Shown here piece after piece: positions 30,430-55,300 of a DNA stretch of 64,000 nucleotides; the stretch's first letter is position 1; every line of letters starts with the position of its first letter. The DNA is from Amphiscolops sp. MND2022. Lineage: Eukaryota. Where the stretch lies: positions 58,094,001 through 58,158,000 of the forward strand of contig OZ076411.1 of assembly GCA_964187785.1 (NCBI GenBank), written 5' to 3'. A program made the position numbers and the translations under genes. The notes beneath the pieces were generated by a model. It saw only the letters and a list, made by a program, of their open reading frames with translations, was not told where the DNA came from and ran no database searches.

Positions 30430-31250
30430 GAGTCTGTCCATTCACACTGGGCGGGTACCGGCCGAAAGCGTCTAAAATTTAATGTACATGAGCATCAGCT
30501 GAAAATATACTTTCAAGGAATTTCTAGGATGTAGTAGGCTAAAGCTATCCAAAAGTACCTAAAACTGTTTGAATATGGCTTTATAATAGACATATGCAGT
30601 GTATCGTTCAACAGAGATCCAAACTAGCCAAAACACTCTACGATTGGAAGTTGGTACGCATAGTTTGGATTTATACAGTCCATCTTTCATCATATAGTAG
30701 GTTAACTTCAGTCGAACCTGTTCAAGACTGGAAATTTATGAGCATTTATAAGATAAAAGCAGTCTATGTTGCAGTAGAAAGTAGGCCTTTGCCGGCCGCA
30801 ATCGTCTAAAACTGGATATATGTGACGCTATTTCGGTCAAAAGCTAACTTTTTAGCTGGGAGTTTGCTTTTGCTAGCCAGAACTGCCTAAAACTACATAC
30901 GAGAGGCTTTGTAGGTTAAATGCAGTCTGTCCTTCGATAAACAGTGGGCTAATCCTAGCCAATACTGTCTAAAAATGTTCATATACGGTAATACATAGAA
31001 TAATTGCAGTTTATCGTTCAGCCTATAGGAGGTTGAAACGATCAGAACCGTTTACGATTAGAGGTACCCGAACATATACTGGCTATATGCAGTCTATCGT
31101 TCAGTAAATAGTAGGTTAAACACGTCGAAACTCCAAGTTTCGAAACTCATGAGCATTCATGAGACAATTCAATGAATCTTGCTGTAGAGAGTAGGCCTTT
31201 ACCAGCCGCAACCATTCGAAAGTTGATACGTCAGAGGCTCTTTAGATCAT
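30430..31250 (+). repeat. Highly diverged relic monomers of the downstream ~83 bp satellite
   Basis: Recurring GCAGTCTATC...GGCTAA..CTAGCCAAAA..GTCTAAAA(A/C)TGG..ATAT pattern. Confidence 0.6.
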
Positions 31251-31275
31251 TTGCCGTCTATTTTGAAGTAGATAG

Positions 31276-31605
31276 TGATATACCAGATGATATACCAAAT
31301 ATTTCTTGATTTATAATTATCCCCCCTATATGTCTAGACTTTAGAACAGTGCATATCATTTATGAATGTGCTCATTAATATTCTAGATGTAAAATGAATT
31401 GATTGATGTAACTACTTTATATTCAATACCATGAATTCTGATTTGTAGAACACAACTAGAATTGAATCTTCACCGATTAGTTGTCTTCACCTTAAGACCT
31501 AATAACTGCAGCTCTGTTAGCGTCTCTTAAAGTACTAATTGTAATTTCGATAGAAAGGCCCAATTCTATCTTAACTTTAAATAACAACAAGATCCAAGTA
31601 CTTTA
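31276..31605 (+). repeat. 5' LTR (330 bp, TG...TA)
   Basis: Matches 49427-49759 apart from 4 substitutions and a C6/C9 homopolymer difference (manual comparison). Confidence 0.95.
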
Positions 31606-31607
31606 AC

Positions 31608-31620
31608 TGGTGCGACCACC
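31608..31620 (+). promoter_or_regulatory. Primer-binding site TGGTGCGACCACC (possibly tRNA-Gly type)
   Basis: TGG 2 nt after the LTR end; complementary to a tRNA 3' end ...CGCA-CCA; tRNA identity is inferred. Confidence 0.7.
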
Positions 31621-31685
31621 TCTTTTCTTTCCTTTGTCTAAACATTTTTCTACTCATTTTTCCTTTCCATTCCAAACAAACTTTC

Positions 31686-31945
31686 TGTACTAATCACACA
31701 AAGTGATTCGACTCATTGTCGGTACACCCCTCAAACCTTCTTCTGTACTAATCACATCTCGTGGTTCGACCTAGTAGTCGGTACACCAAATCTTTTCTGT
31801 ACTAATCACTTCTAAGTGATTCAGCTTTTTGCTGGTACAACATCCTCTTCTGTACTAATCACCTTTTGTGATTCAGCTACGCGCTGGTACACTTTCTTCT
31901 TCCGTACTCATCACCTTTGACGTGATTCCGCCTTTAGCTGGTACA
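31686..31945 (+). repeat. Five ~42 nt structured units (three-way junction) in the 5' leader
   Basis: TGTAC-T-AATCAC-loop-GTGATT-[CGAC/CAGC]-loop-[GTCG/GCTG]-GTACA at 31686, 31744, 31798, 31851 and 31903. Confidence 0.85.
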
Positions 31946-32662
31946 CTTTTTTCATTTCTTTTTTTACCTCCCACTTTTAAATCATTAAATTTTCTATTTA
32001 AAATTCCTTCCCTTTTCTACCTCCTCCCAATTTTTCCATGCCTTCCCTTGATGACTCCGTTTGTATTTGTCTAATCCTCCTCTACCTTTTTGGTCTTTGT
32101 GCCATTGTCCTTCTTCTTGTTGATAAATTCATTCTTCCTTTCCTCCCTCATGTTATTGACCAATATAGAGCATAATCCCTGCCTTTTTCATTTATGTTTC
32201 TTACCGAAAACCTTGCCACTATTATTCTTTTCGTTTCATACATTTTTGCAATGGTTGTTTTCTTAATGCTCCTCATTGAAAAAAATGTCGAATCTCTCTT
32301 CCACTAACTCCCCCTTCTTCTTAAATTTCCCCATTTCCTTCTCCCTTCTTCCTTTTATATTCCCACTTAATTTATTATCTTCATTTATACTTTTATCACT
32401 CTCCTTTCCTTTTTCCCCTCCCTTTTTGTATGAACCTCCTCTTCCTTCACCCCAATCCTTGCCTTGCCCTTCTTCAACTACTTTTCCTTTCCCTTCTTCT
32501 TATCAGTACACCTCTATATTTTCATTCGTCTCTCTTATCATTTTATACCTACATTCGCCAAAAAATTCATCGCTTTTTTCCCCTCCCTACTGAACCATCT
32601 GTCCATCCTGAAGTTATTATGGATTGGATTTGGTTATATTACAATCCCCATAAACACTCCTA

Positions 32663-35340
32663 ATGACTGACCCCATACAACCCGTTATCCCCCTTCCCTT
32701 TGTTTTCAATGCCTCTCAACGTGTTACCCGTGATATTTCACAAACTCTCACTCAATTTCTTAACAATCTTATTTACAACTCCACCACTCCTCTTTCTTTT
32801 GAAACCTACCCGGAAGATATTTATACAACCCCTCTTATTCGTGAACATCATGACTCTTATTTATACTATATTAACACCCATTCTCTTGTTGTAAATTCTG
32901 AAGAACCCCCATTTTCTATTCCCTTTACTTCTCTCACAACTCGCTCTGATACCTTTCGAAAAAACATCTATCCTAACAATATCTATATCCCTATCGCTAA
33001 TGTCTTTACAACCTTCCTCAATCATCTTCAAGAAAAAAATAACATTTTACCTAAACCTGTTTTTAACCCTTCTTCCATACAAGACCTTCTTCAAAAGGAA
33101 TCTCTTTTTGATCTTCCTAATATTGAACAATTTCGCATTATTGAAAATGATCCTCACCATTGGCTTACCACCGATATTCTTCAAATTCATCATTTTCAAT
33201 ACCAATTCTTTCAAAACCTTACCCTCAATACAAAAACCAAAGAACAAATTCAGATATACTCTTTTCCTTCGAAAATTCTTTCGACATAATTACCAACTCG
33301 TTTGGCACTCGAAATTCCAAGATGCTTGTATAAATTTTCCTCAACAGTTTACTTCAGATGAACTTTTACCTTTTCTCGATACTCCTGATAATCAACACCC
33401 TCAGTATTATAATCTTCTTGATTTTCCTTCCTCTCATTTTAAATACCTTGCCTATGACTCCAATAGTCTTGATAAAAGTCTTAACCTTCCTCCTCCTGTT
33501 CGTCCTTATACACAACAACACCATCTACCTCCTTGAACTGATACAATTTCCAATGTCTCTATTCACACTCTTCCCTCATCTTCAAATGCTGTAGTAAACC
33601 CTACCCCACCTATAAATCAACACATTCCCACTTCTACTTCTCAAGTCACCACAATTAATGAAAACCTTCCTACTTCTCACTCACCGAATCAATATACTAC
33701 ACCTTCTAACACTCCACCTGCCGTTCCTTACAATACTGTTAAACCTTGAGCTCTCCAAATCCCCACATTACCCCCATTCCTCTTTCTTTGAATAATACTC
33801 TTCCTACTCAATCTCTCCCTCAAAACCCCCTACCTTCTTCCACCCATGATCCTTCTTTATTTAATCAAAATCATTTTTCATCTTCTTCCCTACCACCAAT
33901 TCCTTCTATTTCTCAAACTACTTCTTCTAATACCCAATCCACCTCATACAATCCTTATCTTTCTCTCTATCCTACTTTTCAAAACTTTCTCACTAATTCT
34001 TTCCAACCCCCTTCAAACCCCCCTCATCCTATTCCTCCTACTTCTACAGTACCTTTCAATTCTTCTTCTCTCTATTCATCTCTTCATTTTCCAACCACTC
34101 CTTCTGTCCCTTTTGCTGCTTTATCCGATCCTATTAAACTCTTTGATGGCCTCGACCATACTTATCCTCCTGAAAAATTCTTAGCACATCTTAGTGCTCG
34201 AGTAACATTTCAACTTGGACCTCAACCTGTAGATATTCAATCATGTTTAACTTGGCATTCTCGTCGAATGTCTCTCCTTTAATGTTCCCTCACAGGAACT
34301 GCAAATTGAAGCTCTTTCCCTTGTTAAAAAGGATAATGAAAATGTCCGTCACTTCGCTTTTAAAGTCGAAACCCTTGTTACTTAAGGTTGGTACAACGAG
34401 TACCCTTCCACTATTAAACTCAAATGTAATGAAATTTTCACTCGTGGTCTTCCCAAAAAATTAAAAGACTTTGCCAATAAACGCCAAGTTAAACATATTT
34501 CAAGTTCCTTAGAACCGTCAATTCCTTTTCACTCTCTTGTCAATATGGTCGATTCCGAAGATATCACTCTTGAAAAAATTAAAACTCAAGAACTTTCCCT
34601 TGAAAATAACACTCTGTCTAATACTTTTCAACCATTCAAGATTCTCCTTCCGAATCTCCACAAGTTCAAGTAATGGATCCTAACAATAAATCAAAACCTC
34701 AATTCAAGAAATATTGTTCCTTTTGTCATAAAAATAACCACTCTGTTTCAACTTGCTTTCGCCGACTTAATATGCTCAAAGAATCAAAACCACAATCTAG
34801 ATCTCCGACTCCTACCTTTTATCAACATTTTAAAAACCCTTCAAATAAATCTCATTATCCTCGCTACCGTAGTCGAAGTCATAGTAACCCTTCGCGAAGA
34901 TCTCGCGACACTCGGTATCAATCTCGTTCTTATTCACGTTCACATTCACGTCCTAGATACAATATTAAAACCCCCTCCCGTACATATTCGTCTTACCACA
35001 ATCGTGATAGATATTGATATGATAAACATTACAATCACAATCCCTACAAATCATACACTTCTTCACGAACATATTATAACTCTAATTCCTCTCGTAGTCC
35101 ATCTAAATATTACCCTCGTTCTCGTGAACGTTCCTCAAGTTTTAATACTTCTACTTTTAATAGATACAATTCTCCTTATCGTCCTCCTTCTAAACCACGC
35201 AATGATCGCTATCGTAGTAGATCTCATTCAAATTCAAACAATCATTCTCAATCCCAATACAAACCATCCATAAATCTTACACATCCATCTACACCACCTC
35301 TTCAAAGCAACTCCAATACAGAAGCTAATTTTGAAATAAA
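32663..35340 (+). pseudogene. gag: Long Gag: N-terminal extension, P/S/T linker, capsid, CCHC knuckle, RS-rich domain (several frameshifts and stops)
   Basis: DPIKLFDG...PEKFL; FAFKVETLV...EIFTRGLP; CSFCHKNNHSVSTC; RSRSHS...RSYSRSHSRPR. Confidence 0.8.
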
Positions 35341-35341
35341 C

Positions 35342-36320
35342 ATGTATCACCCTAATCCTCCACTATCCCAGTCTTCTTCAACTTCTACTGAACATGCCAA
35401 TGCTATTACACCTTCCACTTGGTTTGTTAATTTATACATTTTCAAACCCAGTGAAGTTACCTCTATCCCTTCTAAACTAGAACTCTTATTCTTACTTGAT
35501 AGTGGAGCATCCATTTGTGTTTTAAATTTACCCACTTTCACCATTTTAGCCGATCACTTTTTAAAATGCTCAAAACATTCCCCACATCAAAATGAATACA
35601 AAACTTTAACCGTTGCCAATAAATCCGAAGTACCTATTCTCCATTATCTAATACTTACACTTCATACCTCCCTTCATGAAAATACTCGTACCCTTGTTAT
35701 TCCTTTTGCAGTAGCAAATATTAAATACACTATTCTTGGAACTCCCTTTTTTGAAAAATGTTAAAACTCTTAATATTGAAAGTATGTCACTGACATTTAA
35801 TACTCCACATGAATCTGGCATTAACACCCTCCCTTTTACAGCTCTTAAAGAAAAGGATTATCCATATTTTTCTTACATATACACTATCAATGTTAAAAAT
35901 AAGCTCTATTTTAAACCCAACGCCTCTCAAATCATCCATTTTCCAATTCAACCAACACTTCCTTTAACGTTTAAAACTTCTGATAATGAAATCATATTCC
36001 CTTCCACGCCTCATCCATTTTTAATACACGCTTCAACTCGACCTTTAATTTTCTCCAAGTCTACCGGAATAATAATACCGAACCTTCAAGTTGTTCTGTT
36101 ATTATTCAAAATATTACTCACCACTCTGCCTTTCTTGCCCCTGGATATATTGGATACATTGAAGTTCCAGCCACTAATATTCAACCAACTCACTATAAAG
36201 TTAATGATGTAAACTCCGTAATACACACCGTATTTCATTCTTATTATCCTGATCTTTCTGAACCAAAACCTCCCCGTCGACATTCTTCTCTTCGCAACCC
36301 TCCAATTGAAATAAACAATT
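35342..36320 (+). pseudogene. Aspartic protease followed by a possible dUTPase-like spacer
   Basis: LFLLDSGASICVL and ILGTPF; downstream QNITHHSAFLAPGYIGYIE is only weakly dUTPase-like. Confidence 0.75.
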
Positions 36321-37800
36321 TGCAACCTTCTCAAATTTTAACCCGACCTCTTCCACCATTGCCATATTCACCAGACACTCAACAATTCCTCAATAATATT
36401 AAATTTCAGTACTCTGATGTCACTGATGAAGAATACTTACAACTCTGCTCCATGCTTGTTAAATATCGAACCTGCTATGCGACACATAAAAACGATGTTG
36501 GTCAAATAGCTACTCCTTTTCGAATCCGTCTTAAACCCAATGCTAAACTTCAAACCCAAAGACCTACAAAAGTTCCTATCCATTATAGAGAAAAATTAAA
36601 AACACTCCTCGATGAATTAGAAAAACACAATATTATTCGCCAAATTTGTTCCACTCATTCTGACAAATCCATTTATGGCACCACATTTTTAAACCCCCTT
36701 ATTATTATACCCAAAGGAGATACTATTAAGGTCGTTTTAGACGCACGACATCTTAACTCAAATACCGATCAATCTTTCGAATCCTGGCCTATTGAACCTT
36801 TAGCTCCCCAACTTGCACGTGCTAACAAAAAATTCAAATCCGCCATTGATCTCTTGTATGCTTATGCTCACGCTCCCTTAGATGAAGAAACTATAACTTT
36901 AACTAGTTTCTCTTCTGGTGACAAACTTTACGCTTTCATTCGTGGATTTTATGGTCTTAAAGGCCTACCCAATTTTTTACCAAACAAATGTATTCATTTT
37001 TTCAAAAACTTATTGACCAAGGTTTTGCATTAGTTTATATAGATGACATTCTTCTTCTTGCAAATTCAAAATCTCACATGTTAAATTTAATTGAACAACT
37101 TCACCAAATTTGTCAAATAAATAATCTTAAAACTGCTCCTGAAAAATCTTACTATATCCTCCTCACCGTCAAATTTCTTGGACATGAAATCGGCAATAAT
37201 ACAATCAAACCCATCTCTTCTAAAGTTGATGCTATCCACCAATTAAAGACACCTACTTCTAAAACTGAATTAATGCGCTTTATTGGATCAAGGAACTTTT
37301 ACTCCAAATTCATCAACAAACTACATATTTCCTTGAAACCCTTTTACACTCTTCTCCACGATGATATTTTATTTGAATGGACTCCTGATCTAGATAAACT
37401 TTTTAATCAAATCAAACTTTCTCTTTCTAAAGATGCAGAACTCGCTATACCAAACACTACCCATCCATTTTATATAACTGTCGATGCCTCTTTAATAGGC
37501 CTAGGTGCAGTTTTATTTCAACCTAACTCCAAAAATAAAATGCAAATAATTTCTTATAATTCTCGTATTTTAACAACGCAAGAACAAAAACTTTCTACCT
37601 ATGATAGAGAACTTTGTGCTGTTACCGTTGCTCTTTCCTAATACGAATTTATTATAATTGGCTCCAAGTTTCCGATAACAATTTTTACAGATCACAATCC
37701 TATTCTTTTCCTTTTCACTCGTAAAGGTAACCTAACTCCTAGACAATATAAAGCTCAAATGCTATTAACCAAATTTTCAAACCTACAAATATTTCACACA
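36320..37800 (+). pseudogene. pol: Reverse transcriptase and RNase H
   Basis: VLDARHLN, IDLLYAY, FYGLKGLPNF, VYIDDILL, KFLGH, TVDASLIGLGAVL, STYDRELCAV, FTDHNP. Confidence 0.95.
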
Positions 37801-38599
37801 GCTGGTACAAACCTTACTGTTGCTGATATGCTAAGTAGAGATTTTTCAACTATTAGTACTAAAACATGCCAACTCCAACACAAAACTCTCCCTCCACATA
37901 TTGATTTCCTTCAACTCAAAAATAATATTTTAAAACCCATTCACTATCTAGTAAAACATGAAGATGTACTCCCTACACAAAAAACTGATTCACATTTAAT
38001 CTTAGCTGATTATGGTGATGATCAATTCACACTCCGTATCCAAGATAAAGGCAATATCGTTAAATATACTCCTCTTGATTCCTTTTCTTTTCAATCTGTT
38101 TCCTCATTCTTAAAGAAATACAAAAAACCTGTCAAAAATAAAGTTAAAATTTTACTCCAAGAAAATTCCCTTTTAATATGATACAGACGATCCCGTTCTT
38201 AAATTAATTCCTCAACAACATTCACAACCATCTCATGAACTTCACACCCTTTTTACTGAAATACAACATCATTATTTTAACGATATCAACTTGTCTCAAG
38301 ACATCCTAACCAACTTTACCAACTCCCCTCCTTTTGTTAATAATATTATTGACAGTAATGCTATAACCCCAACTTCTCCAAAGCCTATACATGCTCAATC
38401 TTTACCATTTTTTGACACTTCCTTCTTTGCTCACTGTAAAGCATTTGATTTCTTTCTCCCTTCCGACACTTTTTTGACAGTACCCATTTTACTTCAAGCT
38501 CAAAAGGATGATCCTGTCCTTTCTACAGTATATAAATGGCTAAAACCAAAACAAAGACCTTATTCCTTGACTCCAATTATTGAAGCAAACTCCTTTTTA

Positions 38600-38887
38600 T
38601 TGCACATAACGAAGTAAATGTGCATTGCAGTCCAGCTAACTAAGTTTTTTTTCCACAATAGTCAACTTCATAATGAGCGCCTTTTAGATAAAAGCCAAAA
38701 CTCCGGAGAGATTCGAATCTGCAGCCTCCCGATTGCACGGCATGAGTGTTGACCACTGTGCCATAGGGACGTTATTGAACAAAGTTGAACTGTTGAATAT
38801 ATACGCATGCGATTAAAATAATATATACGCATATTGTAATAATCGATGTCTTCGTCATGTGTTGCGAAGCACCGCTTCGCCTCTGTG
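38600..38887. mobile_element. 288 bp HINE/Helentron-like insertion carrying a tRNA-derived segment
   Basis: Excision without TSD restores ANSFL-YTYYRQF in frame; subterminal IR CACATAACGAAG / CTTCGTCATGTG; 3' hairpin GCGAAGC-acc-GCTTCGC (38864-38880); minus-strand TGGCACAGTGG and GATTCGAATC boxes. Confidence 0.75.
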
Positions 38888-38889
38888 TA

Positions 38890-40738
38890 TACTTATTATA
38901 GACAATTCCAACATTTATATATTGACCCGATCTCTCATCTTATCCAATATTATACACCTAACTGTCGAATTGTGGAAGAAATCTTTATTAAAACTCAACC
39001 CTCTACTAACCAAACACGTATGTTTACCATTTAAACTTTTTTTATGCTGCATTTAGTGAAACACATTCTCATGGTCATTCCGGTGAAAAACTCTCTATTA
39101 AGACATTTAACCAATTTTTTTTATCCCTCATTTACCTTTATGGTTCTCTATTTTCATCCATGACTGCATTGAATGTCAAACTAATAAACATTCAACCCCT
39201 ATTCCTATTCAACCCCAAAACATTTCTCCTCCTCTTCCTTTTCACGAGAGTGCTACTCACTTCAACTACCGGATCTCCATGGACACTAAAGGCCCTATTT
39301 CTCCATCTTCTCAAAACAACTCCTATATTTTTGTCATCATTGACGCATTCAGTCACTTTGTTGATACGAAGCTCCTCATATTACTTCTAAATATGCATTT
39401 CAAACTCTCCTCCATCACTGGATCACAAAGTTTGGTCCCCCTCAATACCTAGTTACAGACCGAGGTACCGAATATATCAATCAAGATATGGCTCACCTAT
39501 GTTCTCTCTTTCATATTAATCACTCACCTCGAACTCCTTACTCTCCCTGGACAAACGGTCTAGTAGAAGTTCAAAACCGAAATCTTGAAACTCATCTCCG
39601 AATATTTTTACAAAATCCTCCTACTAACTGGTCATTTCAAACTCAAATGTACGCATATGCCCATAATACAACACCTCTTTCTCAACTTATACTTCCCCTT
39701 ATCAGATTGTTTTCCATACCCATCCTCGTATACCTCTCACCTTTTCTCTTAACCTATCTCGTGATGCTTCAAAAAATTGTATCGCATCTTATTGTGAGTC
39801 TTTTCCCCCTCATTCGCATTATAGCACTCAAGACCTTATCCCTTCTTCCACTCACTCCTTGATAAACCTATCTCCCCATGGCTTTTAGCAGCTGAAACTA
39901 CAATGTTAGAAATATATTCAACTGTCCATCGCCATTTAAATCATAAACTCAATTCTCAAAGTTCTACATTTGAAACAACTCACTTAAAACAACTACCTCT
40001 TAATACTTTTGTCATTCATACGAATTTTAAACCTGTTAACTTTTCAAAAAAACTCAAACCTCTCCGAATTGGCCCATATAAAATACCTAACCATCTCTCT
40101 GAGGTAACATATGAACTCCTGTCTCAAGATGGTTCTACATTTCAAACCCATCGAAATCATATTCTACCATATTATCCCAAAGAACCTATAATTTTTCCAT
40201 ATATTAAACACTACCGTTCTACCCCTTCTCTTATTAATAATCCTGACACTGAACCTTACCAAGATACCTTTTCTCGATTTTCCTCCTTAGATTCACAACA
40301 AAATTCAAATCATTCTCAAACCCTTACATTCTCAAAACATAAACAATTCAACAATCTCTCCACTTCCATTCCTAAGTATCAAAATTTTTCACATTATTCT
40401 TCTTTACAAGATAAATTAGATATATTACCATATCTACTCCTGTATACCACAACCCTTCGCATTCTTCTTTTCAAGATAACCTTGATAATACAATTCACTC
40501 TCACGACTCTGACTTTGAAATGCTTCCAAATCCCATTTATTATTCAAACCCCTCAAATGATTCCTTTCCTCAGTTCTTCCCTCGTGTTGCTGATTCTCCT
40601 GATACTTCCTCCTCTCCTTTACTCAACTCTCAAAATGAATCTACTTATAAACGAGCTCCTCATTCCCCATGTAATCTACGTTCACTCCCTCTTCGACATT
40701 ATAATTCATCCAAACCAAACATCGACTTCCCCCCTTGA
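38890..40738 (+). pseudogene. pol: Integrase (HHCC, DDE core, GPY) with long S/P-rich tail
   Basis: HSHGHSG...CIECQ; ISMDTKGP; IIDAFS; LVTDRGTEY; PWTNGLVEVQNR; RIGPYKI. Confidence 0.92.
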
Positions 40739-41067
40739 TTAAATATTCATTCTTTAATTGGATTTTCTACCTTTCCGTATTGTCCTTAGTCTAGACTTCT
40801 ATTAAAGTCCGACACGACAATATAATTAGTAACTGCCTCTTATACACCTTTCTTCACTTTACCTTAGTGAAATCTAGCTGAACGGTTGCTCTCATCAAAA
40901 ATTGATTTCATCAAAACAAAATTAGTATTATTCTCAAATCTCTCTTCACTATTTTCCATCTACATTTCTGTCTCCTTCCAATATTAATCTTTGTTCATCT
41001 TTTCATACTTAATAGAAGATTTTAATATATTTTCCTTTTTGTTTCCATCCTGGATCTTACTGTATTT

Positions 41068-42437
41068 TTGTCCGATTCCTCTTCTCAACCTTCTGTTTCA
41101 AGTGATACTATACCTTCATCACAAAGTTTTTTACCAACTCCTCAACAACCTCCCCTGAACCCTATACCAATCACCCCCTCTTTAGATACCACCCCTGTTA
41201 ATACCCCAACTCACACTCCTCTTAAAACTTCTATTCCTCAACAAACTCAAACTTCTTTAACTCTCCCACTTTCCGATACTGAATCCCCTTTTAACATAAC
41301 CCCTACCCATTCTCCACCTCCTTCTTCTTTTCATATCCCTGATCCTAGTGATATCAACCCTATTCTCCTTAGAAATATTAATAATCCAACCCTTCCTAAA
41401 TCAAAACTTATACCTACCTGCATAAAATCTTTTCGCAGACGCTCTCAGTTAGATAATTCTCTTTCAATCCCTCCACCTTGTTCTAATATCTCCTCTCAAT
41501 CTTCACTTCCCCCACCCAAACCTCTCAAAATCCCCGCGCTTGAATCTCTTGACTCTCTTCAGAAGAAATCAGACTTAAGTGAAGTCGATTCCACTACTTG
41601 CTCTCTCCTTTATCCACGTCTTCCTCCTTCAAATTCCGCCTCTAAATATACAACCTCTTCTTTAGATAACCTTCTTGACACTACTTCTGAATCTACTCTT
41701 CGCCATCCGCTTCGTCATAGATACAACCTTCGCAATAATCGTCGTCCTTCTCCTTCTAAGCAAGTACTAACTCTTCTCTTCTACGCCACCACGCTCAATC
41801 TCTTTCTTCGGATTCCCTCTCTAACGCGGAAAACTCTCCAACTTCGGGAATTGACACTACTTTTTCTCAACGTTCTTCTATTTCTTCTTATAACCACACT
41901 GGTTACCTTTTCTCTCGCCCAACCTCTCAAAACTCCACTATTCTTTCATCTGATAGTCAATTGCTTAACATTGATCTTACTACTGATCAATACTCTACTC
42001 CCCCTACACCTAATCGTGTTGAGAACCCTTTAATCGTAAACAACACTCTTGTCAATAGCCCCCGCCAAGATCCTCGCTTTCTTTACCTTGCCACCCATAA
42101 ACTTAATTCGAATCCCCATATTTCTAATGCACGCCGTCGTAAAGAATTTCTTTGCCTTGAAGACACAAATTTAGAACTTAAATTTGAAATTACAGTAAAA
42201 TTTTATAACTTAAGTCCTCACCCCATTCCTTCACATACAACAGTTAATTTTAAATCTCTTCCTCATCCTTTTATTGCCACAATCCTTAGTCTCTTTGTCA
42301 GCGACCATCCTCCCTTTCGTCTTTTACACGGTTCCATCACATTTCTTAATACTCACCTTTTTGAAATATACTGCCCAATTTTAAAATGCCTTTCCTTTTT
42401 CACTCGCTCTTCTATTTCCTTTCTTCCTATTTCTTAG
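41068..42437 (+). pseudogene. Accessory ORF A between pol and env (P/S/T-rich N-terminus, possibly globular C-terminus), frameshifted
   Basis: Overlapping ORFs 41068-42033 and 41961-42437; no family recognised. Confidence 0.45.
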
Positions 42438-45147
42438 TCTTTTCTCAAATTGCTCCCTCCTCTGATCATGTAGATCCCAATGATCCTCATATTTCGGACC
42501 TTTTAGTCTCTCACTACGATTGTTCTAAACAGCATAATTTAAGACAGTTCAGTCTTACTCGAGTCCAACCATGCGCTCAAGCCCCATCTGCTTTTGAAAG
42601 TACCCGTGCTATTGTCAATGTTTTTGTTCGCGCTAAAGCTAAACGTCTTAGAGCTTGGACCTGTGAAGCTTATGTAAAACGTGAAAAATTTGTCTGTGCC
42701 CAATCGGATTACAAATATCGTCGTCATGATCGTACTGATTATCACCAAAATACTATGGAACGTCCTCGTACTCTCGATCCTACTGATTGCAAACATGCTA
42801 TTCGCCATTTGAATGGAACTAACAACCCTCCACTCGACGCTTTTAATTACTCTAATTCTTTTACATTCTTTGATGATATTCAAAAACAACGCCTTTTAGA
42901 AACAAAACAACCCCCTTTTCGTATTACTAAACTCAATACCTTTCACTATGGTGCTTTTGCTTGGATCACCAATTCACAATTAGTATTAAACTCAACTCTA
43001 AAAGAAAAAGCTGTTTGTTGGGATCGCTATGAATACATTATCGAAAAAGATTGCTGGTCTCTTATCGTAAAAGAAATTGGAATTACTTATGATGATAAAG
43101 ACAATAAACTAATTTACCATGGACATACTTTACCTTGTCTCCACGATGATGGTTTTTGTAAGCCAACTATATTAACACCATTCACCATTGTTTGGTTCCC
43201 TGAAGACCTTTGTTTAATCTTTTCCATTACTTCCTTTATTGGTAGAATGTCTAAACTCAATAACCGTTATTGGCTTGAAACTGAACACTTTTCAATAATC
43301 ACTCCTCTACTATTCAAACAGATACTCCTTATCACGATACCAAATCTCAAACCCGCCTCTCCCGTTCTGAAGTTTTTCCTGAAAATAAAATGTTTTGTAA
43401 TAAACCCACTCCTTTACATCTTACTCAATATCATGATCTTTTTATAACATACAAAGAAGGTTTTAATATGCATACTGGTAAACCTAATCCTCTTCAACTT
43501 CCACAAAATGAACAATACAATCAACTCACTACCCAATTAATATCTGGAAAATTAATTCATACCCACGACAAATTTCTTTTCCCTGCTCTAAACTCTTCAA
43601 ATAATTTTGCCACCATTGATTACGAAGCTCATATCAATACTAAAATGAACTATTCTATAAACCATGTATTTAAAAGCATGTCCGTTGCTGAACTTAATAC
43701 TCTTCATACTATATGTGAAGTGGAAAGAACCCAACTTTTAACAATCCTCTCCATGTCTGTTAAAAATCCACAACTCGCTGGTTTCCTTTTAACCCAAAAC
43801 CGTAGTAACTTATATGTTGAAGGCTCTACTGCCTGGTTATATGATTGTCCTCATCATCTTTCACCTCTATACATTGCTGACCAATGCTATGACAAAATTC
43901 CCGTCAATTATCTTGACACTGTTATGTATGTCGATCCTGTTACACGTCAAACGTTTGAATATGCCAGTCAAATTCCTTGTGAGAATAATCCTCAAAATGT
44001 TATTTCTCTTGACCCAGATACCGATCAATATTATGTTTTAACTCCTCAACCTATTAAAAAAAGATCCCCCTCTCCTTTTTGAACCAACCCAAATCCAAAC
44101 TGCTATCAGTCCTAATACCTTCACTGCTCAAGATGCTGGCATTTATTCTCAAAAAGAACTAAAACATTTTTGGAATCGAGTTTTATTTACTAGACATTCT
44201 GACAATACTCTTCAACTTCTTGGAAAAGCTATTAGCTATGAATTTATGAATCAACAATCTGCTAATTCTTTTCCGGATAATCCTTACCGATCACACAGAA
44301 TTGGTCTTCACGATTACATGTTAAACTTAACCCCATTTTTCTCTCCTGACTGGTTTACCGATGCTTTTATAAAACTTTATGGCTATCCATGCTATATTTT
44401 AACCCAATGTGGAATCTATTTTTCTACCGCTCTTTTCTTACAATTCGCTTTTAACACACTCTTTAGTATTTATCGTTCATTCATTGTTCGAAATTTACTT
44501 AAAAAACAAATTTCTGTAATAACTGCCTTAGGATTTGGTTTCTTTGGAACTATTACCCAAACCATGATGACCGCTATGATTAAATCATCTAATTCACAAT
44601 CAGAATCTGACGATTCAGATTCACCCCACTCCCCATTAGCGAAAACTCACACTATTCCTTCTAGTCCCAAACCTCGTCCTCCTAAGTATCATACTAATAT
44701 TAAAACAAAACTCCTTAATTTAAAAAATAAAAACCCAATGCAAAGATCTTCACCTAATTCTTCCCCAATCAAACCTCTCTCTTCTGTTCTTCATTCTACT
44801 CCCCCTAATCATGCACAATCCTCTAACACCGAAGATTATTCACCCCCACCTCCAAATTATAATTCTCACCTTCCCCCTCAAATAATCTTTCTCCTCGACC
44901 CCCTCAAATATCTTCGATATCTTCTCCCCTATATTTGCATAATTCTCCTCCTCCTGATGACACAAATTGTGATAATTCTTCCAATGATTCCCCCATACAT
45001 AACCTCTGGCAATCTACTAAAATATATCGCCCTACTCCGCCGCCAATTAAAACTAATGACATCCCTTTAACTTCTGTCAATAATATTTTTGACCCATCTG
45101 ACAGTCCTGTCAAAGTTTATTCCTCTTGCCGTTTTCCTCCTGAATAA
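42386..45147 (+). pseudogene. env: Envelope glycoprotein, class III fusion type (chuvirus G / herpesvirus gB-like), frameshifted
   Basis: Signal peptide; HYDCS...N...FSL..V..C; C..........C; LPC....GFC...IVW....C; ICEVERT.LL..LS; LYDC...CYDKIPV...YVDP.T...QIPC; GIYS.KEL; C-terminal TM segment and S/P-rich tail. Confidence 0.8.
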
Positions 45148-45491
45148 TCCATCAACTTTTAATTTCATCATTTTCTATCCTGAATATTGCTAATCTAACT
45201 TAATTTCCTACGAATTGATTTTGAATATTAATATTTTACCTCCTTTACATAATAATTACTGTTTTCCTAACTTACTTCCCATTTCATTTGTCATCATTCT
45301 CGCTTCTCCTTTGGTCACTTCTCCTTACTTTCTCAAAATCATTTGTCTTGAACTTTTCACGAAAATCTTACTTATCTATATAATCTTTTCTATTAACCAC
45401 ACAACGCGCACTTGTATCACCTTCATTTCTTAGTTGCTTATTTATACTAAACTTTTTCACACATTTTCTTCCTCTTCTTTCTAATTCCAAA

Positions 45492-46587
45492 ATGGTAACC
45501 ATAAATCCTGAGGAAGAACTTCTGTCAAGCATCGCTTCCTTGTCGCCCCCTCTTTCTCTCAAATCTGGTACTCTTGATATCGTAATTTTGACCACTATGT
45601 TGCCTATGCTTCCAAAAACTTACCACAACTCGCCTTCTGGCAAAATAATCAAATTCGTTTCTTTCAATTTCAATTCAATTTTCTTAAACCGACTCACAAT
45701 GATCTAAATACTAATCCTAATGATATAACCACAACTCCTTCTGTTAAAAAACTTCACCATCAGACTTATCAACTCTTTCTCGAACAAAAACACCCTCAGA
45801 ATTTCTTTTTTCAAAATCACAAATTTACTTCCCCATTTTCATACCACTCTCACTATTCCTTAAACCATCTCTTCACAATCGGAACAATTCGTAATTATGA
45901 CCCTGTTAAACAGTATTTTATTCTTTCGTCATACCATGACCCTACTCGTCCGTTGTTCGTTCCTCAAGAAGGTCTTAATGTTAATGATGATTTTCTTCTT
46001 CCGACCCACATCCCTAACGCCGTTCCCAATTTCTTTCCAAAAATGAACAAATTAGTGGAAACACCTCTTGATGATCATTCCCGCTCTCTATATACAGCTC
46101 TAATTCACAAACATTATTCTCTCGCTCAACTCAATTTTATTATTGCAAAACTCTCCTCATTCATTTTGAAAAAACAATATAAATACTTCTCTTTAAATGT
46201 CTCTGATGAAATTTTTCAGTCTCTTCCTAAACATACTCCTTCAATACTGTATCTGAACCTTCTCAGGCCCCTTCTGCAACAATCCCTCCTCAATCCACTT
46301 ATGTTCTACAAACTGCAAATCCTAACGTTTGTATTAACTCCTTCTCCTGTCCTACTGACAAATTTGTGTCAGAAATTCTTACTCTCCTCCGTCCTCATGT
46401 TGAAATTGCTCCTAATACCGATCCTTTTATTATTTTAAACCACATTTTTGACACGTTCCGTAATCTCCAATCTTTACTTCAACTTCATTCAACAGATATT
46501 CAAAATTTGACACTCTCTACAATCCATGTTAACGACTTTCTTAAACTTGTTTTACTTGAAACTCCTCCTCAATTTACTTCATCTTAA
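45492..46587 (+). pseudogene. Accessory ORF B downstream of env, fragmented
   Basis: Consecutive protein-like ORF pieces 45492-45707, 45953-46438 and 46366-46587. Confidence 0.45.
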
Positions 46588-47282
46588 AATTCTTCTCTCC
46601 TATTGGTAAATTTTCTTTAAATCCAATTTTTAATCAATATTTTTTTAAATCCAATTTTTAATCACTTTCACCTGACTTCAACTACTTCGGTAATTACTCC
46701 CGTTCACACCTTCAAACATAACTACCAACACTTCGAAAAATTTTTCCTCCTTTCTTCTAGAATCCTTTCCTATCTCACAGCCTTCTTGTCTTTCTACTTT
46801 CAAATCTCTTATCACTCATACCTGAAATCTTTTCAATTCTTTGACAACGACTCATTCCACTTCCTATATCTTATCTTTCATTGACTTCTTACACAATTAT
46901 GTTTTTCACTCCTAATTAACATATATCACTCCTTTTCCTTTTTCTCTTGACACTTCTTCCTATTAGTTTCTTTTGTTCTTAGACCTATTCACTTGACATT
47001 TTCACTTGTTCTTCTTTCATGAGTTTTGACAACCTACTCTTAATCTTTTATAACTATTATTTCTAAAGTATTTTCTCTTCTTTAATTTCTCTTTTTCACT
47101 TGCTCTTTCAAAGTCTCTAAAGTTCACTACTTCAACGAATATCCATTTTCCAGTTTTCAACTCATATTTTTTCTTCTCTGACATAAATAAATTTGATCAC
47201 AACATCCTCTGTATCTATATTAAATTCCTCCGAATTATTTAAAATTAATACAAAATAACTCAGCAATAATTTTGTTTCAGTA

Positions 47283-47900
47283 ATGTCATCTTATCCTCCT
47301 TCCACTTTGGCATATCCTCTTTTTAATCAACTCCTCGACTCCTTTCTGCCATTCCCCGTCTCTTCTACTTCTTCGACGTTCACTCTTTCATCCATTGATA
47401 CTTCTTCACCTTTGTCTGTGGCATCACTTGTTTCTTCAACTTCTGCTGTTCAATTGCCACCCATGTCTTCTCTCTTGACAACAACTGCTTCTACTACTCT
47501 TCCAGTGCTTTCTTCTTCTCTTCAAACTCCAGTTTCGATGACAGACCCCACTCCTTCTCTTCACCCCAAAGATGCAGTCGCCACTTCTCCCAATCTTCAA
47601 CAATATTCAGCCGTCCGTCAATTGACCAATGATCTTCAACTGAAGAAACCACGGCACCCCAGACGTCCACAGCTACCTCTAGATGGAATTGGTCCACCTG
47701 TCCGTCGACTGGTCCACACAGCTGTCTATAAACAGAAACTCGCACATTATATTGATGCATTAAAACTTTATGAAACACATCTTGATGAACTTATTCAGCA
47801 AACTACTCTTGAATTGGATAATATTAATAATAAACTCCCCCTTCAAAATTGCGAAAATTTAAATCGACTCAGTCGAAAACTAGACATTTATCCCCTTTAA
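47283..47900 (+). CDS. Accessory ORF C, intact 205 aa (S/T-rich N-terminus, basic middle, coiled-coil C-terminus)
   Basis: Intact ORF preceded by the splice-acceptor-like TTTTGTTTCAG (47270-47280). Confidence 0.55.
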   Translation: MSSYPPSTLAYPLFNQLLDSFLPFPVSSTSSTFTLSSIDTSSPLSVASLVSSTSAVQLPPMSSLLTTTASTTLPVLSSSLQTPVSMTDPTPSLHPKDAVATSPNLQQYSAVRQLTNDLQLKKPRHPRRPQLPLDGIGPPVRRLVHTAVYKQKLAHYIDALKLYETHLDELIQQTTLELDNINNKLPLQNCENLNRLSRKLDIYPL

Positions 47901-49426
47901 ATATTCAAATCCCCTTCCATAATTGTTCTAATTATCTTAATTACTTCCAATGCAATACCCCCCATTGTTCGCATGTACCAGTCAAATACACACTCCGTTC
48001 TCCTTTACCTCCCCTCTCTCTTTCCCCGCATTAATTCCCAATCGTATTGAACCCATAACACCATCCTCTCAATCACCCACCCCCTTAAACGATTTAGATA
48101 ACTTAGTAACGTCATTAAATGATGATTAAAATGTTTCATATGTTCGTTTTCCCTACATATTTTTGTACATTTTGTTCAAAACTATCTCTGTTCTTATGTT
48201 CTTAGTACAACAATCTCACCCCCTCCCTATTTTGCTTTTAACCCCCCCCACCTTCTACCTTTATGCTATACCCTTCCTTTCTCCCCCTTACTTTTCCCCC
48301 CTGACGTCATACAATTTCTTTGTAAAATTCCCTTTTAACTTCGGTTCTAACTGACAAAATTTTACAAATCCCATCTTAGCATGTTGCTCTCGCCCCAATT
48401 TCTCCTGAAATGTGGAGCTACTTTTTTTCTTTTCACCTTTCTTCCACTTTAATAGACATTTTTTCAAACAAAATTCCATTTTTTTAACCTTTCTCCCAAA
48501 AATTTTAACTTTGATTCTCTATAACTTCAGTTCTAACACCTTTTTTTTCTTCTTACTCTTACTAAATCACATATTAAAACTCACTCACCTCAGCATCTAA
48601 CTCTTCGTCACTTGCTGATTTCGCAAATAAATTTGCTTGCTCAAAATTTTCTTTGCCTTTTCTCAATTGAAAAATTAACCTGCCACATGATATAATTTTG
48701 AACACATGTTGACTCATATGGATTTGTTTTGGCTTCCAAATTTGTTTTGATCACGCCGCCTTCTTGCTTTGAAGTTCCGCCATTTAATCTTAGTTGTTCA
48801 AAAGACTAAAGAGATAAATGCTTAGTTACCCGACAACTAAGAATCTTGGTCTTTCACTCTGAACTTCTTTGTCAATCAGGCTGCCATTTCTTGCCAATCT
48901 TTTAATTTTTCCAAATTTCTGCCTGTCACTCAAATCTTTTACCGCCTCGGAAGAAACTTGAAGAAACTTAGAATAGATATTATATGAAAATTTCATAGAC
49001 CTCGAAAACACTAAACTACTAAAATCATCACCAATATGAATATGCAAATCACCCTCAAAAATTCAAAATTTTTTCTTGTAATTTCTAAATACATCCTCTG
49101 GCCTACCGATTAAACAAATGTACTTAACTACCTGCTGAAATAATCTCACTCAGGCTTAGACCCGATACTGCCGGTAACTTACGAAAGGAAAGAAATGAAG
49201 ACAACTTTCTATTAAGACAATTCCAATCAAAAAATTTTTTTTTCATTCATAAAACTTTATATCACAGACTGCCAAACCTTCTCTTATTATTCTTTCTCTT
49301 CATACGTATTAAACCAACCTCCGACAATTTGAATGAAACCTCCACTTCCAAAATTTACACCAATAAAATTTAAAATCAACACCAAATTTAATTTTAAAAA
49401 ATTTCTCTTTTCAAAACCCGGTCGGA

Positions 49427-49759
49427 TGATATACCAGATGATATACCAAATATTTCTTGATTTATAATTATCCCCCCCCCTATATGTCTAGACTTTAGAA
49501 CAGTGCATATCATTTATGAATGTGCTCATTAATATTCTAGATGTAAAATGAATTGATTGATGTAACTACTTTATATTCAATACCATGAATTCTGATTTGT
49601 AGAACACAACTAGAATTGAATCTTCACCGATTAGTTGTCTTCACCTTAAGACCTAATAACTGCAGCTCAGTTAGCGTCTCTTAAAGTAATAATTGTAATT
49701 TTGATAGAAAGGCCCAATTCTATCTTAACTTTAAATAAGAACAAGATCCAAGTACTTTA
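49427..49759 (+). repeat. 3' LTR (333 bp)
   Basis: Direct repeat of 31276-31605, followed by TSD ATAG. Confidence 0.95.
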
Positions 49760-50334
49760 ATAGGAAGCCATTGCTAGCCTAAACTGTCTAAAACTGGAAT
49801 TACAAGCGGCTCTGTGGAATATATAGTCTGTCTTTCAATAGACAAAAATCTAATGCTAGCCAAAACTTTTCAAAAAATGTTCATATACGAGTATACATGT
49901 GACATTTGCAATCTATCGTTCAGCATGAAGCAAGCTAGAACCAACCAGAATTTTATAATGATTGGAAGTACCTAAGCATCTGTTGGGTATTTACATCGTT
50001 CAGTAAAGTACGTTGGAACAAGTCGAAACAGTCTGTTGGCGCCAGTCACTTGCAAGATCAGAAACTCAAAGTTGAACGTGATTGATAAAACTTATATTTC
50101 AAAACACTTAGAAACATTGTCACGATTTTAGTTAGAAAATTACAAGTTTCACCAGAAAAAGGGTATTGCAAAATGTGCAACCCCCCTCTCGTCCCGATGA
50201 ACCACTTCATCAATCACCTTGAAACTCGGCACACATATAGTGGTGGTGCTATCCTAACCTTTCACTTCTAACACCCTACACCGTATCTCCCCTGGGTTCA
50301 GAGCAATTAACACCCAAAGTGATCTAGGTCGGAC

Positions 50335-51463
50335 CCCATGAATTACCCAAAATTGATGTATTAATTATTGTGATTTTCTCATATGACCTTGAAGGAAATG
50401 TAATTTTGTTGGAATTAATGATATTTACATTGTGTAAACATACTTTCTAACCCACCTAACCAACATGCCAAAACCACCACATAGTTTGTTTACTTAGCCA
50501 ATAACATCATTTTATGCTTTAAATGTCATTTATTTATACTTACATATTTCGACTCATATTTACTGTAGAATTGTAAACCACATTTATACCATTATAAGAG
50601 AGAGATTTTCTCCACTGAATAGCTATAGTCAAGTTGGGTCTTAGGACCAAGAGACTAATTAAACAACTTCTCAATCTTCACAACATTTCGCTAGAGTCAG
50701 AGCGACTAAGTACCTACTCTCATAGTTGGAGAGCCGGAGCGCGTGAAGATACTGTGAGGGAAGTGTGTTACGGATCACATCGGATCCAAATCAGTGCAAA
50801 GAGGAATCGCAGAAGATTCCACGAGTCACATCGGACCCATCAAGCCAAAAGATACAGTCCTTTAAAACAAGAAACCAGTTGGTTACATGCGGTCTATCTT
50901 CCAATAGATAGAAGGCTAATGCCCATGAATTACCCAAAATTGATGTATTAATTATTATGTGATTTTCTCATATGACCTTGAAGGAAATGAACTTTGTTGA
51001 AATTAATGATATTTACATTGTGTAAACATACTTTCTAACCCACCTAACCAACATGCCAAAACCACATAGTTTGTTTACTTAGCCAATAACTTCATTTTAT
51101 GCTTTAAATGTCATTTATTTTTACTTACATATTTCGACTCATATATTCTGTAGAATTGTAAACCACATTTATACCATTATTAGAGAGAGATTTTATCCAC
51201 TGAATAGCTATAGTCGAGTTGGGTCTTAGGACCAAGAGACTAATTAACCAACTTCTCAATCTTCACAACTTTTAGCTAGAGTCAGAGCGACTAAGTAGCT
51301 ACTCTCATAGTTGGAGAGCCGGAGCGCGTGAAGATACTGTGAGGGAAGTGTGTTACGGATCACATCGGATCCAAATCAGTGGAAAGAGGAATCGCAGAAG
51401 ATTCCACGAGTCACATCGGACCCATCAAGCCAAAAGATACAGTCCTTTAAAACAAGAAACCAG
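50335..51463 (+). repeat. Tandem duplication of a ~543 bp segment (period 587) with a 44 bp satellite-derived spacer
   Basis: CCCATGAATTACCC at 50335 and 50922; both copies end AAAACAAGAAACCAG; spacer 50879-50922 is identical to 51798-51842. Confidence 0.9.
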
Positions 51464-52329
51464 GAATTGTTTAGTGACGGTCAACAGCACTAAGCAACGG
51501 ATCAGGGCGGCGTAAAGCTTGTCAAGCCTCAGCGCAGGATAAGGGCAAGCAGCCGTTACACAGTCCAAGTTTCAAAAAATAAGAGTATTTATTAAAGAGC
51601 AGTGTATCTTTCAGTAAAAATTGGGACATTGGATCTGGAATTGTCGAAAACTGAATAAGAGTGACGCTACTCAGGTCAAAGGCAGTCTGTTTTTCGGTAT
51701 GTAGTAGGCTATTACAAGCCGAAACCGTCCAAAATTGAAAATACGTGAGGCCTTGTTACACGCAGTCCGTTCAAAATTGAAAATACGTGAGGCCTTGTTG
51801 GTTACATGCGGTCTATCTTCCAATAGATAGAAGGCTAATGCCAGTCAAAATTGTACAGAATTGCTTGACGATGGATATACAAGAGACATTTGCAGTCTAT
51901 CGTTCAGTATACAGTAGGCTAACTATGCAAAAGGGTATGAGGTTGGTTATACACTAGCGTATACACAATTTATGCAGTCAATTTTTCAGTATTTATAGGC
52001 TAACAACAAGAGTAAGTGTCAAAGATTAGATATACATGAAATTGTAGAGGGTTTAGGTAATCGTTTTCAATAAATTGAACGCTAAACTAGTCAAAAGTTT
52101 CCAAGTTTGTATATACATGAGCTTATTTAGGGTGTATGCAGTCTCTTTTCTGTGTATAGTAGACTAACATCATGCTAAAGGGTCTAAAATTGGGTATGCA
52201 TTAGCGTATACACGATTTACGTAGTCTCTCGTTAAGTATTCAACAGGCTAACACACGATGCCAAACTGTCTGAGAATAGATATACATGACAATGCAGAGG
52301 ATTTAGGTTCTCTTCCAAGATATAGATCG

Positions 52330-55300
52330 CTAACACCAGCCAAACGTGTCTGAGATTGGATATACATGAGCATATACAGGGTATATACAGTCTATCTTTT
52401 GGTATATAGTCTGCTAACAACAGTCAAAAGTGTCTAAGACTGGTTATACATTGGCATATTTAAGCTATACGTAATCTCTTCCAAGATATAGTACGTTAAC
52501 ACTAGTCTAAAGTGTCTGAGATTCGATGTACATGAGCTTACATTGGGTATATACAGTCTATCTTCCAATTTATCGAAGGCTAACAACATTCAAAAGTGTC
52601 TAAGACTGGTAATACATTGACATATGTAAGCTATAGGTAATGTCTTTCAAGTTATAGAAAGCTAACACTAGCCAAAAGTGTCTGAGATTAGTTATACATC
52701 AGCTTATACTAGGTATATACAGTCTATCTTTTGGTATATAGTATGCTAACAGCAGTCAAAAGTTTCTTAGACTGGTTACAAATTGGCTTTTATAAGATAT
52801 ACGTAATATGTTTCAAGATATAGTACGCTAACACTAGTCAAAAGTGTCTGAGATTCGATATACATGAGCATACACTGGGTATATACAGTCTATCTTCCAA
52901 TTTTTCGATGGCTAAAAAGATTCAAAAGTGTCTAAGACTGGTTATACATTGGTCTATGTAAGCCATACGTAATGTCTTTCAAGATATAGAACGCTAACAC
53001 TAGCCAAAAGTGTCTGAGATTAGTTATACTTCAGCATATACTAGGCGTATACAGTCTATCTTTTGGTATATAGTATGCTAACAACAGTCAAAAGTGTCTA
53101 AGACTGGTTATACATTGGTCTATGTAAGCCATACGTAATGTCTTTCAAGTTATAGAAAGCTGACACTAGCCAAAAGTGTCTGATATTGGATATACATCAG
53201 CAGATACCGGGCATATACAGTCTATCTTCCGCTATATAGTATGCTAACAACCTTCAAAAGTGTCTAAGACTGGTAATACATTGGCATATGTAAGCTTAAG
53301 GTAATTTCTTTCAAGTTATAGAAAGCTGACACTAGCCAAAAGTGTCTGAGATTAGTTATACATCAGCTTATACTAGGTATATACAGTCTATCGTTTGGTA
53401 TATAGTATGCTAACAACAGTCAAAAGTTTCTTAGACTGGTTACAAATTGGCTTTTATAAGATATACGTAATATGTTTCAAGATATAGTACGCTAACACTA
53501 GTCAAAAGTGTCTGAGATTCGATATACATGAGCATACACTGGGTATATACAGTCTATCTTCCAATTTATCGATGGCTAAAAAGATTCAAAAGTGTCTAAG
53601 ACTGGTTATACATTGGTCTATGTAAGCCATACGTAACGTCTTTCAAGATATAGAACGCTAACACTAGCCAAAAGTGTCTGAGATTAGTTATACTTCAGCA
53701 TATACTAGGCGTATACAGTCTATCTTTTGGTATATAGTATGCTAACAACAGTCAAAAGTGTCTAAGACTGGTTATACATTGGTCTATGTAAGCCATACGT
53801 AATGTCTTTCAAGTTATAGAAAGCTGACACTAGCCAAAAGTGTCTAATATTGGATATACATCAGCAGATACCGGGCATATACAGTCTATCTTCCGCTATA
53901 TAGTATGCTAACAACCTTCAAAAGTGTCTAAGACTGGTAATACATTGGCATATGTAAGCTTAAGGTAATGTCTTTCAAGTTATAGAAAGCTGACACTAGC
54001 CAAAAGTGTCTGAGATTAGTTATACATCAGCTTATACTAGGTATATACAGCCTATCTTTTGGTATATAGTATGCTAACAACAGTCAAAAGTTTCTAAGAC
54101 TGGTTACAAATTGGCTTTTGTAAGATATACATAATATGTTTCAAGATATAGGACGCTAACACTAGTCAAAAGTGTCAGATTCGATATACATGAGCATACA
54201 CTGGGTTTATACAGTCTATCTTCCAGTTTATCGAAGGCTAAAAAGATTCAAAAGTGTCTAAGACTGGTTATACATTGGTCTATGTAAGCCATACGTAATG
54301 TCTTTCAAGATATAGAACGCTAACACTAGTCAAAAGTGTCTGATATTGGATATACATAAGCTAATACCGGGTATATACAGTCTATCTTCCGCTATATAGT
54401 ACGCTAACAACATTCAAAAGTGTCTAAGACTGGTTATACATTGGCATATGTAAGCTATAGGTGATCTCTTTCAAGTTATAGAAAGCTAACACTAGCCAAA
54501 AGTGTCTGAGATTAGTTATACATCAGCATATACTAGGCGTATACAGTCTATCTTTTGGTATATAGTATGCTAACAACAGTCAAAAGTGTCTAAGACTGGG
54601 TATACATTGGCATATGTAAGCTATACGTAATCTCTTCCTAGCTATAGAACGCTAACACTAGTCAAAAGTGTCTGAGATTCGATATACATTAGCTTACACT
54701 GGGTATATACAGTCTATCTTCCAATTTATCGAAGGCTAACAACATTCAGAGGTGTCTAAGACTGGTTATACATTGGCAAATGTAAGCTATAGGCAATGTC
54801 TTTCAAGTTATAGAAAGCTAACACTAGCCAAAAGTGTCTGAGATTAGTTATACATCAGCATATACTAGGCGTATACAGTCTATCTTTTGGTATATAGTAT
54901 GCTAACAACAGTTAAAAGTTTCTAAGACTGGTTACAAATTGGCTTTTGTAAGATATACGTAATATGTTTCAAGATATAGTACGCTAACACTAGTCAAAAG
55001 TGTCTGAGATTCGATATACATGAGCATACACTGGGTATATACAGTCTATCTTCCAATTTATCGAAGGCTAAAAGGATTCAAAAGTGTCTAAGACTGGTTA
55101 TACATTGGTCTATGTAAGCCATACGTAATGTCTTTCAAGATATAGAACGCTAACACTAGCCAAAAGTGTCTGAGATTAGTTATACATCAGCATATACTAG
55201 GCGTATACAGTCTATCTTTTGGTATATAGTATGCTAACAACAGTCAAAAGTGTCTAAGACTGGGTATACATTGGCATATGTAAGCTATACGTAATATGTT

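Follow-up and report, generated by a model that had tools for sequence, protein, structure and literature searches.

An env-bearing Ty3/gypsy-type element with a repeat array in its leader

The window studied here is a stretch of 64,000 nucleotides from Amphiscolops sp. MND2022 (contig OZ076411.1, positions 58,094,001 to 58,158,000). It contains an 18.5-kb, env-bearing LTR retroelement of the Ty3/gypsy type, located at 31276 to 49759 on the plus strand. The 5′ LTR (31276 to 31605) is 97.9% identical over 334 nt to positions 49427 to 49760, ends in TG...TA (instead of TG...CA), and is accompanied by a 4-bp target-site duplication (TSD). The 3′ LTR (49427 to 49759) was placed by this LTR-LTR match, its right end being read in the window copy only. 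The primer-binding site (PBS; 31608 to 31618) consists of 11 nt complementary to the 3′ end, with CCA added, of a host tRNA-Met(CAT) gene, which we take to be of the elongator type from its acceptor stem. In other leaders, the match was 14 nt (L089), 11 nt (L103), or 9 nt (L122), and a tRNA-Met(CAT) primer with a match of just 9 to 14 nt is common to family A, to which the window copy belongs, and its sister families B and C. Just before the PBS, the end of the LTR carries a palindrome with a GUAC core (31590 to 31605), which could pair with the 5′ strand of the first repeat unit around the primer site.

No ATG occurs from 31431 to 32038, an interval that covers the repeat array. The first AUG after the PBS opens a small hydrophobic open reading frame (ORF) of 45 amino acids (32038 to 32175) that has counterparts in subfamilies of family A as well as in family B and its variant B′. 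It is followed by a hydrophobic ORF of 37 amino acids (32194 to 32307), kept in the family-A subfamilies examined, and by one of about 77 amino acids (32430 to 32663) immediately 5′ of gag; the two hydrophobic ORFs gave no Pfam match. Family C has its own 37-amino-acid hydrophobic ORF before gag. The small ORFs between the array and gag may encode small membrane proteins, and their presence at 32038 to 32663 raises the question of the route by which gag-pol is translated.

The gag-pol region (32663 to 40742) encodes a protease-like motif, reverse transcriptase (RT), RNase H, integrase, and an SH3-like C terminus, with several broken frames in the window copy. Gag has a CX2CX4HX4C zinc knuckle near 34715 to 34756, followed by an Arg/Ser-rich tract (about 34715 to 35270 in the window; families A and B). 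Long tracts of this type are reminiscent of SR proteins or of the hepadnavirus core tail. The env-like gene (42365 to 45070), again with several broken frames in this copy, matched Monjiviricetes_fusion (PF24664; E values of 4.9e-17 and 1.6e-4). One ORF between pol and env (41026 to 42033) and two after env (45578 to 46587 and 47268 to 47900) gave no informative Pfam match and are candidates for accessory-protein genes.

The LTRs, the PBS, the TSD, and the protease-RT-RNase H-integrase (PR-RT-RH-IN) order are those of Ty3/gypsy (Metaviridae), and the best match of pol to a solved structure was Ty3 Gag-Pol. The closest element types, as far as the cited accounts describe them, are the env-bearing Ty3/gypsy "errantiviruses" in the wide sense (PMC13524379), the Burro/Ogre giants (PMC6431247), and the 412/mdg1 lineage (10.1101/2020.09.24.311225), which share the PR-RT-RH-IN order, an env gene after pol and, in 412/mdg1, small ORFs before gag. 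The present element is set apart by its length of 18.5 kb with short LTRs, its Monjiviricetes-type fusion gene, its tRNA-Met primer, and its TG...TA ends. Membership in Troyka, for which the source gives CG...CG ends, a 3-bp TSD, and no env (PMC12440569), was ruled out by the TG...TA ends, the 4-bp TSD, and the presence of env. The Odin/lokiretrovirus hallmark is given as a tether plus a second RNase H (PMC9040795; PMC7947760). We found one RNase H, which is Ty3-like, and the stretch of about 330 residues between it and the integrase (about 37800 to 38900; searched on P0002) gave no informative Pfam match.

Elsewhere in the window, a 166-bp satellite with about 60 copies and a higher-order periodicity forms an array at about 51800 to 62040, and the flanks of the element resemble decayed copies of a related repeat. 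A stretch of 1.55 kb is present three times in tandem at 5601 to 10247 and adjoins a BEL/Pao-like element; the BEL/Pao peptidase domain in the window fits an animal host. A further stretch of roughly 550 bp is tandemly duplicated at 50335 to 51463.

Five structured units behind the primer-binding site

Directly 3′ of the PBS, 78 to 338 nt from its start, lie five repeat units of about 42 nt that a sequence-only reading of the window had described; the stems and the position that it gave were recovered here. Unit 1 (31686 to 31726) comprises a GUAC strand, a 6-bp hairpin (P2), a 4-bp hairpin (P3), and a second GUAC strand. P3 is CGAC/GUCG (GAC type) in units 1 and 2 (31744 to 31785) and CAGC/GCUG (AGC type) in units 3 (31798 to 31839) and 4 (31851 to 31891). 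Unit 2 has a U-G pair at the third base pair (bp3) of P2, the loops differ from unit to unit, and unit 5 (31903 to 31945) is degenerate, as had been noted; this last unit is decaying in the subfamily of the window copy. The linkers were also correctly called pyrimidine rich (81%, or 1,834 of 2,277 nt in 195 linkers), but this is not a property of the array in particular, since the whole sense strand of the element is C rich and G poor (GC skew of -0.3 to -0.7).

The unit pattern matched five times in the window, compared with no match of any kind in 100 shuffles. The 271-nt array folds more stably than expected on the plus strand (z = -5.3) and on the minus strand as well (z = -4.6), so that stability alone does not fix the strand. 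Folded singly, units 1 to 4 formed the junction proposed in the sequence-only reading (z = -2.4, -1.1, -4.1, and -2.0, respectively), and unit 5 formed none (z = -0.4). A covariance-model search of positions 30500 to 33000 against Rfam, with E values up to 10, gave no match to the array. There is no conserved palindrome in an exposed loop of the kind that serves kissing-loop dimer initiation: the family-A loops are variable and the GUAC palindrome lies in the stem strands. A GUUCGA-like word recalls tRNA mimicry or a Pol III B box; we rejected this on inspection, since AGC-type units lack the word and its agreement with the consensus is incomplete.

Copies of the array and selection on its stems

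The source genome contains 1,110 exact matches to the unit pattern, compared with none to a reversed-pattern control. Among 50 loci picked by the motif alone, 48 had the family PBS just upstream; of the other two, one had a degenerate PBS and one had lost it. A landmark-based parser identified 301 units, 231 of them distinct, in 74 of 76 distinct leaders (1 to 8 per leader); as it needs sequence landmarks, it misses decayed units and is biased to intact ones. The number of units per array is variable, about 3 to 8. None of the family-A loci that we mapped was a replicated nonautonomous derivative, which would have indicated a need in cis. In a pattern scan of IMG/VR there were 8 single matches and no full unit. 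For 92 relatives in JGI metagenomes we kept 80 loci, all 21 to 34% identical, and none had the family-A unit.

We compared the window array with 22 distinct close copies, which had been selected by array similarity, a choice that should bear equally on stems and loops. The stems of units 1 to 4 differed at 51 of 2,715 sites (1.9%), the loops at 124 of 915 (13.6%), and the linkers at 122 of 1,122 (10.9%), with 8.1% and 11.1% in the two flanks. In unit 5, 127 of 648 stem sites differed (19.6%). This comparison of copies establishes purifying selection on the stems of units 1 to 4.

The stems of the array thus change 4 to 7 times less than its loops, linkers, and flanks, which largely refutes the explanation that the array is a functionless by-product, namely, a hairpin amplified by template slippage whose arms are kept complementary by template-switch repair of quasi-palindromes. 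The variable unit number and the decay of unit 5 would fit such an origin, and a single template-switch event could produce the two-base-pair switch between GAC and AGC types. Repair of this kind should not leave stable G-U pairs, however, and the array is kept at the same place in three families (see below). We regard this explanation as very improbable.

Covariation in the two inner hairpins

Among the 231 distinct units, P3 was G-C (105 units) or A-U (85) at bp2, A-U (126) or G-C (81) at bp3, and C-G (179), U-A (14), or U-G (12) at bp4, and bp3 of P2 was U-A (146), U-G (38), C-G (24), or C-A (15); these counts come from related sequences and overstate the number of independent events. The CAAC/GUUG form of P3 was seen in 4 leaders. 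P2 is sometimes imperfect, as the C-A mismatch (15 of 231 units) occurs in 8 leaders. The span of P2 varies between 11 and 26 nt, with two cases at 38 nt.

The compensatory change from CGAC to CAGC, which the sequence-only reading had taken as covariation, is a genuine paired change but not an independent one: mutual information across positions (0.59) exceeds that of one true pair (0.52), indicating one linked lineage event. Better evidence of covariation came from other family-A subfamilies and from the sister families. By our reading, independent double changes, with G-U intermediates, probably occurred four to five times in family A. Counted by leader, P2 bp3 has a sense-strand G-U pair in 44 and A-C in 8, and G-U intermediates on the sense strand favor RNA over DNA as the level of pairing. 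A test of shared versus private differences was uninformative (3 G-U, 3 A-C, and 5 other differences shared in at least three leaders; 60, 48, and 124, respectively, private). Taken from these alignments, the paired changes support P2 and P3 as selected RNA helices. The proposal that structure rather than sequence is under selection holds for the inner hairpins but not for the junction letters, which are nearly invariant in sequence and point to a sequence-specific reader.

The same data bear on a role at the DNA level, in which the repeats would be dyad sites for a host factor (an insulator or enhancer), as in the 5′ untranslated regions (UTRs) of the Drosophila elements gypsy, ZAM, accord, and Tirant. 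Tandem 5′-UTR repeats with a function in DNA are described at the equivalent position of Ty3/gypsy elements (PMC8872304), and here the sequence of both the junction letters and the GUAC palindrome is preserved; the minus strand also folds well. Yet the distance between dyad halves varies widely, as the P2 span shows, both arms change together, and the sense strand has the excess of G-U over A-C at P2 bp3. The units are thus not linear, pairing-independent DNA motifs of the gypsy/ZAM insulator type, their changes being paired and their dyad spacing variable, and we consider a DNA-level role quite improbable.

Closing stem

The sequence-only reading had proposed a three-way junction supported by covariation. 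Covariation supports the two inner hairpins, but the stem that would close the junction has no compensatory change at all: in every leader from which a unit was parsed (74 of 74), its core is the palindromic GUAC/GUAC. When the leader was folded as a whole, the 3′ GUAC of a unit paired with the 5′ GUAC of the next unit with a probability of 0.84 to 0.95, compared with at most 0.06 within the unit, and this was the same in the model at 37, 25, and 15°C. The preference for pairing between units is not decisive, as the folding model has a multiloop penalty and no coaxial-stacking term. The 5′ strand of the first unit was intact in 65 of 67 leaders and the 3′ strand of the last unit in 55 of 67 (with the parser biased to intact landmarks); that the outermost strands are mostly kept fits a junction and a closure of the whole array alike. 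From the model, a chain with three hairpins per repeat appears just as likely as a three-way junction.

Sister families carry arrays of different construction

A homolog search and tree identified related clades about 67% identical in RT/RNase H (within-group tree), two of which have many copies in the source genome. Families A, B, and C each have many copies with long open gag-pol frames there. The P0007 and P0008 clades are not in the source genome (best matches of 74 to 75% and 78 to 81%, respectively).

Family B had an array in 19 of 19 leaders, and B and B′ use the same PBS as family A. Arrays of B and B′ contain about seven units, as counted by eye. In family B, the outer stem of the unit is 5 bp long and occurs as three versions, all fully paired (in 19, 19, and 5 of 19 leaders); the inner hairpin comes in several paired versions, among them a fixed G-U, and the unit has a bulge on its 3′ side. 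Family C, with a 9-nt PBS, had an array in 20 of 21 leaders with 5 to 7 parsed units each. Its unit combines a stem and an internal loop with a hairpin that varies; the outer stem reads ACCG/CGGU in some units and ACUG/CAGU in others, and two cases show a G-U intermediate. As copies within family B or C are close, the evidence here is in paired variants between units. The word that marks family-A units was found in the leaders of neither family B nor family C. A terminal hairpin is common to B, B′, C, and one old A subfamily, which indicates common descent of the arrays. Neither the B array (z = -1.4) nor the C array (z = +0.6) was more stable than shuffled sequences, and folds of whole leaders recovered only some of their units. 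The leader comparisons nevertheless show that families A, B, and C carry differently built, covarying arrays at the same leader position.

Two loops in these sister arrays stood out. In one of the family-C units, the apical loop holds a 6-nt palindrome (about +429 to +470 in the L122 leader; 19 leaders), resembling a retroviral dimer-initiation loop. In one of the family-B units, a GACG tetraloop (about +345 in the L103 and L131 leaders; 19 leaders) is kept in B and B′; the same tetraloop occurs in the psi packaging signal of MLV.

A candidate family-specific signal on genomic RNA

Fixed core letters, covarying helices, free loops, and a variable copy number together suggest a multivalent protein-binding RNA, and the presence of three different modules in one host suggests that every family encodes its own reader and that no single host protein serves them all. 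Our preferred reading, which we hold tentatively and give nearly an even chance, is that the array marks the genomic RNA with a multivalent signal specific to the family, which a protein encoded by the element, probably Gag, reads for packaging and possibly for dimerization. Each of the 3 to 8 modules would present a short core of fixed sequence in one constant shape, leaving the apical loops free, and the array, behind the primer site in an AUG-free stretch, would offer several binding sites together to the protein. Gag, with one zinc knuckle and a long Arg/Ser-rich tract, is the likeliest reader and would thereby pick the RNA of its own family. That sister families in one host have rebuilt the module into other shapes is what would be expected if signal and Gag change together. 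We infer the element-encoded reader, its identity as Gag, and the packaging step from these patterns. By its position in the DNA, the array would lie between the PBS and gag on genomic RNA, where psi is found in Rous sarcoma virus (RSV; PBS at nt 102 to 119 and minimal psi at nt 156 to 238, i.e., behind the PBS) (PMC5035971). The packaging sequences of Ty1 and Ty3 are described as imprecisely defined and not confined to such a leader (PMC4974528), which we counted against packaging. A more specific version, in which the arrays are modular RNA "barcodes" derived from one ancestral leader element, each fold being read by its own Gag only and so distinguishing self from sister RNA, is possible but doubtful.

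Two other functions of a leader RNA have to be weighed against packaging. The array could act in nuclear export of the unspliced RNA or in control of its splicing, as a response element read by an accessory protein (Rev/Rem-like) or by a host export factor (as with a constitutive transport element [CTE]). Since env and other ORFs follow pol, the element probably needs spliced as well as unspliced RNA, and family-specific shapes are equally compatible with an element-encoded reader of this type. Each family-A unit moreover starts with a UACUAAY word, which presumably resembles a branch point or a STAR-protein site; the word is absent from families B and C, so this resemblance is only a lead. 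The accessory ORFs, as noted above, gave no informative Pfam match, and most known export elements are distant from the PBS. The CTE of MPMV and the direct repeats of RSV are known export elements and, like the array, cis RNA elements on unspliced retroviral RNA, differing from it in position and in their binding of host factors (PMC5035971). On balance, we consider an export or splicing element unlikely. Alternatively, the array could steer translation past the small upstream ORFs to gag-pol by internal entry, shunting, or reinitiation, and three small ORFs do precede gag-pol, while the array is AUG free with pyrimidine-rich linkers. That linker composition, however, follows the general strand bias, and the array, at a distance of about 700 nt from gag, lies upstream of every small ORF; family C even has an ATG and a 60-amino-acid frame ahead of its array. 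A host factor should also see one motif, yet three families have three. A translation element is accordingly, in our estimate, improbable, a little more so than one for export.

Relation to known systems

The array shares with retroviral psi, as described for RSV, a structured RNA between PBS and gag and a Gag with a Cys-His box, but the RSV signal is built of single, nonrepeated folds, whereas the array, known here from its sequence, repeats a module of about 42 nt 3 to 8 times with free loops (PMC5035971). With the 5′ UTRs of Drosophila gypsy, ZAM, accord, and Tirant it has in common a repeated motif in a Ty3/gypsy leader; those repeats are described as insulators, linear DNA motifs bound by host proteins (the TERM motif by RpL22) and shared between families (PMC8872304). 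The present units, in contrast, form covarying RNA helices that are different between sister families. Repeat A of Xist resembles the array in having short structured units, pyrimidine-rich linkers, a debated balance of intra- and interrepeat pairing, and multivalent protein binding. Unlike an element leader, Repeat A, with the related case of SPEN-bound endogenous retroviral RNA, concerns a host long noncoding RNA acting in silencing (PMC7282817).

A search of mostly open-access papers, in their main texts, found no description of an RNA array that is built of repeats, covaries, and is specific to a family in a leader of this type, nor of this element. Ty3/gypsy 5′-UTR repeats acting as DNA insulators and a structured psi at the retroviral position are already known; what is new is that sister families have their own covarying arrays.

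If the barcode reading is true, Ty3/gypsy elements, for which packaging signals are otherwise poorly defined, would have a packaging code made of repeats and turning over fast. With its 42-nt module, which has natural variants, differs in copy number, and exists in three family versions within one genome, the array is a compact candidate for direct testing. Such work would show how related retroelements avoid cross-packaging or would bring to light an element for export or translation in a large env-bearing lineage that is apparently undescribed.
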